Shown here piece by piece: positions 59,501 through 64,000 of a DNA stretch of 64,000 nt. Origin of the DNA: Candidatus Omnitrophota bacterium (GTDB lineage: Bacteria > Omnitrophota > Gorgyraeia > 2-01-FULL-45-10); NCBI GenBank assembly GCA_026387175.1, contig JAPLME010000011.1:65856-129855 (forward strand), in the 5' to 3' direction. Position numbers: made by a program. Every line of letters begins with the position of its first letter. Within the stretch, counting starts at the first letter, position 1.

Positions 59501-62500
59501 GCTATAATATTCCTATATGAAGATCATTGAACTGCCATTTAAGATCGAGAAGCCGATACTCGCCTGCGGAGCGGACCTGAAGGGCGCGTTTGCGCTCGCG
59601 AAAGGCAATAAGGCGTATCTTATCGAGGGGTTCGGCTCATTAAGCGATCCGGATAATCTGGGGGCGTACGAGGCCTCGATATGCGCTTGTGAAAAGAGGC
59701 TGGGCATAAGGCCCAAAGTCATTGTTTGCGACCGTCATCCGGATTATTTTTCCGGCCGGTTCGCCGCTATGCATGCGCTTAAGCTCGCGACGACGGACTT
59801 GCGTCATATTCAGCATCACGAGGCTCATATAGCGAGCGCGATCGTCGAACATTCGATAGGAACAGATGTGATCGGTGCGGCGTTCGATGGGACGGGATAC
59901 GGCTGGGATGGCCGTATATGGGGCGGCGAGTTTTTCGTCGGAGGGCTGAAAGAGTTTCAGAGAGCGGCCCATTTAGAGTATATGCCGATGCCCGGCGGCG
60001 AAGCGGCGATAAGAGAACCGTGGCGCATGGCCGCAAGCTATCTTTACAAAACTTTCGGCAGGAACTTTTTAAAGCAGGGTTTAGATATCATGGCCAGGCC
60101 CGGAGAAAAACGGTTATCTATAATCAGGAAGATGATAGATAACGATATAAACTCACCCCTTACATCGAGCGCAGGCAGGCTTTTTGACGCTGCAGCCAGT
60201 CTAATATTGCATAAGGGTACTGCATCTTTTGAGGCTGAACTTCCAATAGATCTGGAGAAGATAGCTTCTCAGGTTAACGAGGATTGTTATAAGTTCGGCA
60301 TAAAATCTGAGAATGGTATGCGTATTATCGAGACTTCCGGCCTGGTTAAAGGAATTGTAAGCGACCTGCGCAAAAAGAGAGATAGAAGCATTATGTCGGC
60401 AAAATTTCACAACACTGTAGCGGAAATGGTAGTTGGCACAGCATCCTTATTGAGAAAAGAATTCAAGTTGCGCAAAATAGTATTATCGGGCGGTGTCTTT
60501 CAGAATAAATATCTTACAAAAAGAACCGCGCTTCTTTTAAGTAAGAATAAATTTGATGTTTACATCAACTCCGACGTTAATACAAATGATTACGGAATAC
60601 CGATAGGGCAGTTAGCTATCGCGAATGCGAGGGGATCATGTGCTTAGCAATACCGATGAAAGTCCTGAAGATCGACGGCGATGAGGGTATAGTTGCCTCC
60701 GGCGCGTTGAAACGTAAGGCCAATTTTATGCTGTTGAAAGGCGTAAAAGCGGGAGACTATATCCTATTACATGCCGGATTCGCGATAGAGAAGGTAAAGC
60801 CCGAGGAAGCTAAAAAGACTATAAAGATACTTAAAGAGCTGTAAAGGCGGGCGAATGAGAAGAGGCACCGGTCTTATAACTACTTTACTATTTTCGGCGA
60901 TTCTGGCGTCTGCCGCTGCCGCCGACGCGCCGCGGGAGAAGTGGGACGACACTGCGAAGTGGTCGACTAATGCCGATAGCGGATGTTCCGTCAAATTGAC
61001 TTCGTTTCGCGGCGAAAATAGCAACATTCTCAAAGCGGATTATACTCTTAATAACAGGGGCGGGTGGGTTGTATTATCCAAAGTGGTTATAGGCCGCATC
61101 GATAAGGATACGCCCGTAACATTCCTTATTAAAGCGGTCTCTCCGGATGACCTCGAGATGAAATTCATAGACGCCGACGGCTCCATATTCGGCAAGAAGG
61201 TCCCGCTCGGTAAATACGGCGAATGGACCGAAATCGTGCTTTACCCCGGTAATACGGACTATTGGTGGGGCGGGGACGATAAACTCGACCAGATAGTCAC
61301 ATTTGAGCTCGCTATATCCGGTAAAGGCTCCGGGAGCATCCAGCTCGACGAGATAGGACCGGGTAAGCCCGGCCTGGAGGCCAGTTTTGCCCCTGGCGGA
61401 CCGGTCCTCGATCCGGACAGGGATCTTCCGGGCATCGGCTTTAAAGAGCGCCGCGCCGCGGCTCTCGCGCAGGAAGATCCCCTTGTCCTCGAATATTTAA
61501 AACAGATACAGGATAAGTCGTCTCCCGACAAGATATTGGTACCGTCGATGGAAGATAATATGGCCCAGACGTTCAATAACAGCGTCGTCGCCATGGCCTT
61601 CATATTGAAGGGCGAACGCGAAAGGGCCGAGCGGATACTTGATTTTTACGCGAACGCTACCAGAATAAATAACGATGATATATCCCTGCAGAATTTTTTC
61701 TACAAGGGCCAGGCGCGGGGGTTCTATCAGTTTGTAGCGTTGAATGATACACCCGGCACGAGGGCCTACCATAATCCGGGCCCCGCGGACAGATGGATAG
61801 GCGACATGGCATGGCTCCTGATAGCATACAAATGCTACGAGAGAGAGTATCATTCTGATAGATATGCGACTATAATAAAACTTATTAAAGACCTGTTGGT
61901 ATTCTTTTACAAGGACGAAGGAAGCGGGGGCTATATACAGCACGGCTGGCGCGACGGCGATAAGAAGCTTCATGAGAGTTACGGCCACCCGGAAGCGAAT
62001 ATAGACTGTTACGCGGCCTTTAAGCTTTGCGGCGAGGACCTATATGCGGATAAGTTAAAGATATGGATCGACGAGAACGTGAAGGGTGATAATCTCGCTT
62101 TAGATAATTACACATGGCGCGTGCTCGGGATGGGGGCGGAGTATAAGGATTTTCTGAATATTCCGGAATACGATCTCCGGTACAGGAAGATACTGGATTA
62201 TAAGAGCGGCAGGATAATGGGATTTTTTCACGGCCCCGATATAGAGGTGAACAATATCTGGGTCGACGGCACCGGCCATATGGCGTGCGCCTTTATGGCC
62301 TTCGGAGAGCCGGAACGAGGATACTTCTACGCGAATCAGCTGGACGTGCTCTTATTCGATAAACGCATCGCCGGTAAGAGCACCAGGACGCTTGCGTATA
62401 CGCTCAATAAGACCGGAGGATATGACTGGGTGGACACCGCCAAAGGATTTGCATCCTGCTGCGCCTGGTACATATTCGCGAAGAATAGATTTAATCCTAT

Positions 62501-64000
62501 GACGCTGGAGAAGAAGTGAAATATATAGACGAATTCAGGGATAGCTCACTCGTACATAGGCTGGCGGATCGTATACGCGCTGCCGCTAGCCATGGCCGTG
62601 AATACAAGTTCATGGAAGTGTGCGGGACGCATACTATGGCCGTATTCAGATTCGGCCTCCGCGATCTCCTCGAGCCCAACATAAAGCTGATCTCGGGGCC
62701 GGGGTGCCCGGTCTGCGTTACGCCTGTCGAGTATATGGACCGCACTATCGCTATCGCGAGATTACCCGATGTCATCATAACTACGTTCGGGGATATGATG
62801 CGTGTGCCGGGCTCGCGTTCAAGCCTCTACAAAGAAAAGGCCGCCGGCAGGGATGTAAGGATGGTCTATTCCACCGACGACGCTCTGGATATAGCGAAGA
62901 GAAACCCCGGGAAAGAAGTGGTTTTTCTCGGCGTGGGATTCGAGACGACTGTTCCGACAGTGGGGGCGTCCATCATTACCGCGGCCAGGCAAGGCATCGG
63001 TAATTATTCCGTATTATGCGCCCACAAGACTATGCCCGAAGCGCTCCGCTGGCTTGTGGCGGACTCAAGGCACGGCATCGACGGATTTTTACTGCCCGGC
63101 CATGTGAGCGCGATAACGGGCATGAAACCTTACGAGTTTCTCGCGAAAGAATATAATACCGGATGCGTCGCGGCGGGATTCGAGCCCGTAGATATATTAC
63201 AAGCAATACTCATGCTTGTGAATCAGAGTAAGCCCAGGGTCGAGATACAATATAAGAGAATAATCACTCCGCTCGGAAACCGCCTGGCTCGCAGCATGAC
63301 GGGCATGGTCTTCGAGAAGTGCTCCTCCGTATGGCGGGGTATAGGCGAAGTGAAGGATAGCGGCCTTAAGATAAGAAGGGAATTCTCCGGCTTTGACGCG
63401 GCGTTGAAATTTAAGGTCAAGGTAACGCCCGCGCATGAGAACAAGGTATGTATCTGCAATATGGTCCTGAAAGGCGTAAAGACGCCGCTCGAGTGCAGGC
63501 TCTTCGGTAAGAGGTGCACTCCGGATAACCCCGTCGGCTCATGCATGGTTTCGTCCGAAGGCACATGCGCCGCCTACTATAAATACGGAAGAAGATGATT
63601 ATGGATAAGATAACTTTGAGCCATGGCGCGGGCGGCAGGGAGATGCACAAGCTTATAGATTCCGTATTTATGAAGGAATTCTCCGGCCCTATCTTAAGAG
63701 AGAAGAAAGATTCTGCCATATTGAATATCGGGAATAAGAAGATAGCTTTCACTACCGACTCATATGTAGTGAACCCGATATTTTTCCCCGGAGGGGACAT
63801 AGGCAGCCTGGCGATCTACGGCACCGTCAATGACCTGTCTGTGTGCGGAGCCCGGCCGCTCTATATTTCTGTCGGAGCGGTAATTGAAGAGGGCCTTGAG
63901 ACAAGCGTATTAGAGAAAATAGTCCGCTCGATGGCTGAGGCCGCCCGGAAAACAGGCGTCCAGATCGTTACAGGCGACACGAAAGTGGTTGAGAAGGGCG

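Follow-up and report, generated by a model that had tools for sequence, protein, structure and literature searches.

A hydrogenase maturation operon of an Omnitrophota bacterium with a HypF reduced to its Kae1-like domain and a glycosidase-like gene inserted between hypC and hypD

Can a HypF that consists of a Kae1-like carbamoyltransferase domain alone serve in a working hydrogenase maturation operon, and why does a gene for a predicted exported protein lie in the middle of that operon? Both questions are raised by the hyp locus at the end of a 64,000-nucleotide (nt) stretch of contig JAPLME010000011.1 of Candidatus Omnitrophota bacterium (assembly GCA_026387175.1), which is referred to as a whole as the window. 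A map of open reading frames (ORFs) shows that the segment from 59517 to 64000 contains, in this order, hypF, hypC, X, hypD, and hypE, where X stands for a gene encoding a protein of 554 amino acids (aa). An earlier inspection of this DNA, the sequence-only reading, had placed the hypF-like gene, hypC, X, and hypD and had reported a 10-nt gap before X and a 4-nt overlap behind it, and the ORF map and the junction sequences bore out all of these coordinates. The features of the locus are the following:

58867-59516, no strand: non-coding spacer of 650 nt between lpxI and hypF
59517-60647, forward strand: short hypF, 376 aa, Kae1-like carbamoyltransferase domain only (Pfam, TIGR00143, and alignment with 3VTH)
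60638-60844, forward strand: hypC, 68 aa, N terminus MC... (PF01455, 81 bits, and TIGR00074, 72 bits, both above cut-off)
60855-62519, forward strand: gene X, 554-aa predicted exported protein (no Pfam or NCBIfam match; AlphaFold2 model and Foldseek)
62516-63598, forward strand: hypD, 360 aa, GTG start (PF01924, 486 bits, and TIGR00075, 448 bits, above cut-off)
63595-64000, forward strand: 5' part of hypE, which leaves the window at its edge (AIRS/AIRS_C)

The best explanation as a whole, to which we assign a probability of about 0.65, is that hypF, hypC, hypD, and hypE form a working maturation operon of this bacterium, that HypF is naturally reduced to its Kae1-like domain, and that X is an ordinary lineage-specific insertion of a gene from an uncharacterised glycosidase-like family. 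The genes are tightly joined: the end of hypF overlaps hypC by 10 nt, 10 nt separate the hypC stop codon from the X start, the TGA of X shares 4 nt with the GTG of hypD (GTGA), and hypD and hypE overlap in an ATGA. The remainder of hypE was read from identical Logan contigs, giving a full-length protein of 335 aa that ends in ...LPRIC. All of the residues expected of the partners are present, namely, Cys2 of HypC, the CGxH and GPGCPVC motifs of HypD, and the C-terminal PRIC of HypE, and the family models score above their cut-offs. In the mechanism that we propose, the short HypF would carry out only the last step of canonical HypF, HypE would then dehydrate the product to the thiocyanate, and HypC and HypD would load CN onto the iron, while the steps of the missing N-terminal half (N-half), from carbamoyl phosphate to carbamate and on to carbamoyl-AMP, would be supplied from outside the operon.

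The domain content of the short HypF is evident from three lines of analysis. (i) Its only Pfam matches are PF17788 (HypF_C) and PF22521 (HypF_C_2), which together span the full length of the protein. (ii) In TIGR00143, a model of 741 positions, it covers positions 382 to 739 and scores 253.9 bits, which is below the cut-off of 466.1. (iii) It aligns with residues 395 to 747 of the solved 761-aa HypF 3VTH (E = 1e-72). No Pfam match was obtained in the 376-aa protein for the acylphosphatase domain (PF00708), the two zf-HYPF Zn-finger motifs (PF07503), or the YrdC-like domain (PF01300); the model alignment starts only at position 382, and the columns of the Zn fingers and of the YrdC-like domain are empty for this protein in the alignment with full-length HypFs. 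Since the Pfam, TIGR00143, and 3VTH alignments cover the C-terminal half only, the acylphosphatase, Zn-finger, and YrdC-like parts are absent, and the view that this 376-aa hypF product comprises just the Kae1-like half, already put forward in the sequence-only reading, is supported. What is left is homologous over its whole length to the Kae1-like domain of canonical HypF (TIGR00143; 3VTH, 4G9I, and 3TSP) and shares its metal- and nucleotide-site motifs, and its partners in the operon, HypC, HypD, and HypE, are likewise intact; it differs from canonical HypF, which has the acylphosphatase domain, both Zn-finger motifs, and the YrdC-like domain in addition. The HxxxH plus Asp metal site is present, and in the alignment the short proteins do not differ from full-length HypFs at H100, H104, D124, and D358 or in the SSxGRxFDA and GG motifs.

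The short form is not confined to this operon. The best 120 homologues were all 356 to 395 aa in length and had no Pfam domains other than the two C-terminal ones; the names Omnitrophica or Omnitrophota were frequent among them. An exhaustive HMMER search against 1.84 billion representatives of 50% identity clusters gave a similar picture, since approximately 45 of the best 150 representatives inspected were short, with a match that begins within about 40 residues of their N terminus. HypFs of 440 to 625 aa were also considered as a natural class devoid of the acylphosphatase domain and were rejected, as most of them begin partway through the YrdC domain and are thus fragments. In a rough neighbor-joining tree of 157 Kae1-like domains, which carries no support values, the short forms nearest to that of the window grouped into a single large block, of about 38 clusters, to which all named Omnitrophota belonged. 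Short hypF genes are found in nine Omnitrophota loci from independent assemblies (NCBI, JGI, ENA, and Logan), in which the same boundary recurs, and the three loci checked for it (L018 to L020) have an in-frame stop codon 3 to 43 codons 5' of the first start. The ratio of nonsynonymous to synonymous substitution rates (dN/dS) of hypF is 0.11 to 0.15 with respect to three orthologues. HypF is thus naturally reduced to its Kae1-like domain, and this trait is old and lineage-wide. One of these loci, L018 (83-1401; Omnitrophota metagenome-assembled genome [MAG], PLNN01000019.1), contains the short hypF and hypC, and neither hypD nor hypE was detected in the next 9.8 kb.

A precedent for such a protein is HypF1 of Cupriavidus necator (Ralstonia eutropha) H16, encoded on the megaplasmid pHG1 in the hyp1 operon hypA1B1F1CDEX. 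HypF1 has 394 aa, compared with 376 aa here, and the same HypF_C and HypF_C_2 content; the alignment runs from residue 1 of both proteins, each of which is a Kae1-like domain alone, and both operons have the order hypF-hypC-hypD-hypE with hypF overlapping hypC. Together with the spread described above, this precedent contradicts the impression, conveyed by the sequence-only reading, that the short HypF is a peculiarity of the present operon. HypF1 has been described as "an unusually truncated version" (PMC5350229) with one of the three canonical domains that "likely requires carbamoyl adenylate" (PMC9100943). It differs from the window protein in sequence, with an identity of 30%, and falls outside the short-form block of the window in the rough tree, which makes it probable that loss of the N-half occurred two or more times, here independently of HypF1; as far as sequence can tell, the two proteins do not share descent as short forms, and the Omnitrophota form is apparently of independent origin. 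The hosts differ too, because C. necator is an aerobe that has a second, full-length HypF2, whereas Omnitrophota are reported mostly from anoxic habitats and the target here is a group 4 hydrogenase. Wolf et al. are said to have found in 1998 that hypF1 and hypF2 are interchangeable in C. necator. The Omnitrophota proteins are thus a very large, apparently independently derived set of HypF1-type members with a known precedent and not a new system; no prior description of a short HypF in Omnitrophota was found in the literature on Omnitrophota HypF or on truncated HypF.

The coexistence of HypF1 and HypF2 in C. necator also lends some credit to another explanation, in which the 376-aa ORF is a paralogue that has decayed or has an accessory role, or else is an artefact of assembly or of a frameshift, and the real, full-length HypF is encoded elsewhere; the label "partial" that NCBI attaches to some of the Omnitrophota copies points in the same direction. 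We consider this explanation very improbable, and its artefact part is largely refuted. An identical boundary is seen in the independent NCBI, JGI, ENA, and Logan assemblies, the low dN/dS and the invariant catalytic residues do not fit the degraded paralogue that the sequence-only reading had considered, and the short hypF heads the only hypCDE operon seen beside a hydrogenase. No second or full-length HypF comparable to HypF2 was present in the 64-kb window or in the related Omnitrophota loci. A frameshift that had detached an upstream N-half, which the sequence-only reading had also entertained, was not found either: the DNA 5' of hypF is the 650-nt spacer, in which tblastn with the N-halves of four full-length HypFs detected no N-half coding potential or remnant even at E <= 10, followed by lpxI, and the in-frame stops in other Omnitrophota loci are at variance with such a fusion. 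It is the breadth of occurrence, the independence of the assemblies, the dN/dS values, and the invariant motifs that led us to discard a frameshift, an assembly artefact, and a decaying paralogue in favor of a naturally short HypF.

The likely target of the operon could be identified in relatives with longer contigs, in which the order is lpxI, short hypF, hypC, X, hypD, hypE, a UPF0280/ApbE-like gene, and a NIL-Fer4 gene, followed by two sulfhydrogenase β/γ-like subunits, NuoI/H/B/C/D-like subunits, and an antiporter subunit. In these relatives, the genes of a membrane-bound [NiFe]-hydrogenase of group 4 come directly after the operon. In locus L005, whose X protein is 84% identical to that of the window, the hydrogenase large subunit keeps both Ni-Fe Cys pairs (RICGICSSSH and DPCYCC), which indicates that the adjoining enzyme is a genuine group 4 [NiFe]-hydrogenase, and the N-terminal CxxC, the C-terminal DPCxxC, and the NuoB/C/H-like subunits that characterise this group are all present there. 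Group 4g, Mrp-linked hydrogenases have been reported for some Omnitrophota genera (PMC8542988). The hydrogenase cluster of L005 (15339-21668; same order in L006, L008, L010, and L011) opens with Fer4_22 and FAD/NAD-binding DHODB-type proteins, which resemble the β and γ subunits of sulfhydrogenase and anaerobic sulfite reductase and precede the NuoI/H/B/C/D-like and antiporter subunits; a membrane-bound core of group 4 is thus combined with a module of the NAD(P) type.

If the short HypF is functional, its carbamoyl-adenylate must come from another source, and a second explanation holds that HypF is split, so that the acylphosphatase/Zn-finger/YrdC-like half is a separate gene elsewhere and two polypeptides rebuild the canonical pathway. 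The chemistry speaks for it, as carbamoyl-AMP is needed and, to our knowledge, every characterised source of this compound is a YrdC-like domain. Arrangements of this kind are also seen outside the window: on a plasmid of Sulfurovum mangrovi (L015, 1315-3556), an ORF for a 141-aa acylphosphatase lies directly 5' of a 595-aa hypF, an arrangement due either to natural splitting or to a frameshift, and L028 has adjacent ORFs for an N-half and a C-half. To search for such a gene, we used the N-halves of the Salmonella, Parabacteroides, Sulfurovum, and P0253 HypFs as tblastn queries, P0253 being the closest full-length HypF, and covered the 64-kb window and about 150 kb of related loci (nine Omnitrophota hyp loci), that is, about 213 kb in total. 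No HypF N-half was detected in this Omnitrophota DNA, although each of the seven non-Omnitrophota loci, which served as a positive control, gave an N-half match at E <= 1e-71 with the same queries. The sole match, at 31753-32376 (forward strand) of the window, was examined as a hidden N-half and turned out to be a standard tsaC, with 199.5 bits in TIGR00057 compared to a cut-off of 123.2; it is the only YrdC-fold gene of the window and belongs to the cluster purM-purD-purE-tsaC-(low-molecular-weight phosphatase)-rpiB-glyA.

Two further observations bear on a separate N-half. In a database search with the N-half of P0253, no Omnitrophota name appeared among the 120 matches listed, many other phyla and candidate phyla being present, and this absence is weak evidence against a split. 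One scan of genome contigs returned 10 loci, and the two stand-alone N-halves inspected, both from long contigs, have several broken genes around them, hypE and hypC being split as well; because several genes are fragmented in both cases, sequencing frameshifts are suggested and not natural splits. The sequence-only reading had set out a choice between an N-half encoded elsewhere and a non-canonical route of carbamoyl transfer. We consider the absence of a dedicated HypF N-half from the genome to be about an even bet, and the presence of an unlinked N-half gene, as postulated by the split, to be a serious contender with the odds nonetheless against it; other possibilities share what is left. 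Our slight lean toward the former stems from the intact conserved operon, which never retains an N-half, and from the HypF1 precedent.

The question of where a HypF lacking its carbamoyl-phosphate-processing N-half gets carbamoyl-adenylate dates back to the description of HypF1. In the t6A pathway, the adenylate made by the free-standing YrdC-fold enzyme TsaC diffuses to TsaD, a separate Kae1-fold transferase. TsaC/TsaD and the TobZ/NodU O-carbamoyltransferases employ the same YrdC-fold and Kae1-fold chemistry, and the t6A system is a precedent for this chemistry working in trans; it differs from the present case in that the only YrdC-fold gene of the window is a standard TsaC that is unlinked to the hyp genes and for which nothing indicates the making of carbamoyl-AMP. 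A far-reaching version of our reading would be that Omnitrophota and the metagenomic clade of about 38 clusters make the CN ligands of [NiFe]-hydrogenase anoxically using a HypF of the Kae1-only type, while their genomes encode no dedicated acylphosphatase/Zn-finger/YrdC module at all. We regard this version as rather unlikely; if true, it would imply a so far unrecognised supplier of carbamoyl-AMP or another carbamoyl donor, with the housekeeping TsaC and the product of the UPF0280/ApbE-like gene as the candidates in sight. The view of hydrogenase maturation remains as it is unless the N-half is truly absent from these genomes. The relevance of the Kae1-only form is that it is the conserved, selected, and operon-encoded HypF of a whole, largely anaerobic phylum, which offers many natural test cases and candidate partner genes.

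Among these candidates are the genes that follow hypE in the relatives. The UPF0280/ApbE-like gene encodes a 240-aa protein (NF003323, 302 bits; PDB 2o34, E = 1e-40) and comes after hypE in seven of the eight Omnitrophota loci that carry hypE. The corresponding regions are:

L001, 5194-5916: UPF0280/ApbE-like region
L005, 13920-15167: UPF0280/ApbE-like region
L006, L010, L011, L019, and L020: UPF0280/ApbE-like region also present

In all six loci with downstream sequence, this gene is followed by a gene for a 135-aa protein with a NIL domain and two [4Fe-4S] motifs. Neither of the two was found after hypE in the 10 other hyp loci examined. The pair is therefore a candidate partner set for the short HypF, in a comparison that is confounded by phylogeny.

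The second question concerns X, the protein product of which has the same sequence as NTY76_06880 from a Candidatus Omnitrophica MAG. Its predicted parts are:

60855-60926, forward strand: predicted signal peptide, about aa 1-24, MRRGTGLITTLLFSAILASAAAADA (inspection and hydrophobicity script)
60942-61370, forward strand: CBM11-like β-sandwich, about aa 30-172 (AlphaFold2 model and Foldseek)
61467-62516, forward strand: (α/α)6 glycosidase-like barrel, about aa 205-554 (AlphaFold2 model and Foldseek)

The AlphaFold2 model, with a predicted local distance difference test (pLDDT) score of 92.6 and a predicted template modeling (pTM) score of 0.84, consists of an N-terminal helix (residues 2 to 21), a β-sandwich, and an α-helical barrel. 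In Foldseek, the sandwich matched the CBM11 module 1v0a of Clostridium thermocellum Lic26A-Cel5E with a template modeling score (TMt) of 0.69, the matches with a CBM11 fold ranging from 0.64 to 0.72, and the barrel matched MmpH (7qsj) with a TMt of 0.71 as well as GH116, GH100, GH133, and related (α/α)6 enzymes. These matches have a Foldseek probability of 1.0, whereas the sequence identities to X are 9 to 16%, so that the likeness is at the level of the fold only. At the sequence level, CBM11 is marginal (E = 0.09 to 0.12 against PDB, and a weak PF03425 match in 4 of 52 family members), and X matched no Pfam or NCBIfam family and no classified glycoside hydrolase (GH) family. The glycoside-hydrolase-like, (α/α)-rich C-terminal domain that had been proposed for X is hence supported by the model and by Foldseek, and the signal peptide suggested at the same time remains a prediction, in agreement with the inspection of the sequence, the hydrophobicity script, and an N-terminal hydrophobic segment in 51 of 52 family members. 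A lipobox occurs in 20 of the 52, and the copies embedded in hyp operons keep signal peptides of the AxA type, with n-, h-, and AxA-type c-regions recognized by inspection. X would thus be a Sec-exported, enzyme-like protein composed of a CBM11-like domain and a GH-type (α/α)6 barrel. Its invariant acidic residues include D220, E380, D384, D417, and D471.

X belongs to a widespread, unclassified family for which there is no Pfam model. It has 370 homologues at E <= 1e-3, the best 120 of which are 49 to 100% identical, and its hosts are Omnitrophota, KSB1, Bacteroidota (many with sorting domains of the type IX secretion system), Verrucomicrobiota, Elusimicrobiota, Armatimonadota, and others. 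Family members outside hyp operons have neighbors of a different kind: GH2+CBM11, GH35/42, F5/8, and GH94 genes in Elusimicrobiota, a GH144-like "Glycoamylase" and a GH2 gene on a 781-kb contig, and exosortase EpsH/EpsI, PEP-CTERM, and CBM_4_9 genes in another Omnitrophota genome. Two genes 5' of this exosortase-linked homologue, a 390-aa gene without Pfam match (L009, 5690-6862) is 28% identical to the barrel domain of X and represents a distant paralogue. Based on an identity of about 50% across phyla, the lack of a Pfam model, and the glycan-utilisation loci, these proteins may reasonably be regarded as candidates for a glycoside hydrolase family that is new.

Conservation of the insert in relatives, an issue brought up by the sequence-only reading, was found in part. 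X is located between hypC and hypD in the window and in L005 (84% identity), L006 (74%), and L008 (69%), and in L010, L011, L019, and L020, whose hypC and hypD genes adjoin each other or lie 140 to 500 nt apart, neither X nor a remnant of it was detected between them. The identity to X is at least 67% for the ten closest matches and at most 60% for the rest, and all four of the closest matches with checked contexts are embedded in hyp operons. This drop in identity and the pattern of embedding fit a single insertion, and X would have entered between hypC and hypD once, in the ancestor of one Omnitrophota subclade. The gene is under strong purifying selection (dN/dS of 0.08 to 0.10). No terminator-like site was found at the hypC/X or the X/hypD junction, which makes cotranscription of X with the hyp genes likely. 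The synonymous divergence (dS) between X (60855-62516) and its counterpart in L005 (10001-11665) is 0.83, as compared to 2.4 for hypF, 1.6 for hypD, and 1.6 to 2.4 for the flanking genes; with dS near saturation, the lower value of X could be due to codon bias or to a later recombinational exchange.

That X is instead functionally tied to the hydrogenase, either as a periplasmic or cell-envelope factor or as a polysaccharide degrader that is coregulated with H2-evolving fermentation, appears improbable to us. Such a tie could account for a position that is stable down to 69% amino acid identity, for the tight packing, and for the finding that X is conserved to a greater degree than the neighboring Hyp proteins, and Omnitrophota have been described as sugar fermenters with hydrogenases for redox balance. 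It does not explain why the hyp operons of four further Omnitrophota loci lack X or why homologues of 50 to 59% identity, from other phyla as well as from a different Omnitrophota genome, are found in carbohydrate-enzyme and exosortase contexts without hyp genes; moreover, the product would be exported, whereas Hyp chemistry is cytoplasmic. Because X occurs in the hyp operon of one subclade only and its homologues have carbohydrate-enzyme or exosortase neighborhoods, we prefer to view it as a passenger rather than a maturation factor, and most likely it is a cotranscribed passenger that would have no direct role in cofactor assembly. A regulatory rationale, for example the coupling of glycan fermentation to H2 disposal, is possible as a conjecture.

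Several points weigh against the interpretation of the locus as a working operon with a naturally short HypF and a passenger gene. (i) The search spanned 64 kb of the genome, and a full-length hypF or a separate N-half may be present elsewhere in it. (ii) HypF1, the sole short HypF that has been studied, did not complement an Escherichia coli ΔhypF strain and appears to be inactive anaerobically in E. coli (PMC5350229 and PMC9100943), which raises the question of how a Kae1-only HypF would be fed in hosts that are mostly reported from anoxic habitats. (iii) X is better conserved than its Hyp neighbors (84% versus 65 to 79% identity in L005), and this conservation, combined with the tight packing, may leave room for a functional or regulatory link. 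(iv) The export of X and its cotranscription with the hyp genes are deduced from sequence alone.

Other features of the window can be described briefly. The genes 5' of the operon are dnaB, bamA, skp, lpxC, fabZ, and lpxI. The spacer between lpxI and hypF is long, with 650 nt in the window versus approximately 105 to 235 nt in relatives, and an Rfam scan of it gave no match. It contains a promoter-like site (TTGTTA-17-TATAAT, 59480-59508) just 5' of the hypF ATG, a nested 150-nt hairpin (58884-59026; z = -5.1 for the RNA fold), and a palindrome, GGGACAGGT-N16-ACCTGTCCC, that is present twice (59248-59281 and 59330-59363) and the 9-mer of which occurs five times in the window as against 0.14 expected. 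At a distance from the hyp locus, at 23228-23935 (forward strand), lies an initiator-type tRNA(CAU) that was not called by ARAGORN and that is apparently split into a 5' half, GCGGGGTGGAGCAGCCTGGTAGCTCGTTGGGCTCA, and a 3' half, TAACCCAAAGGTCGTCCGTTCGAATCGGACCCCCGCTACCA, by about 630 nt of inserted DNA. Within this DNA, Rfam identifies a group I intron core (23663-23857, 54.8 bits), and an ORF for a 147-aa PD-(D/E)XK endonuclease (23264-23707; PF11645, E = 2e-42) is also present.

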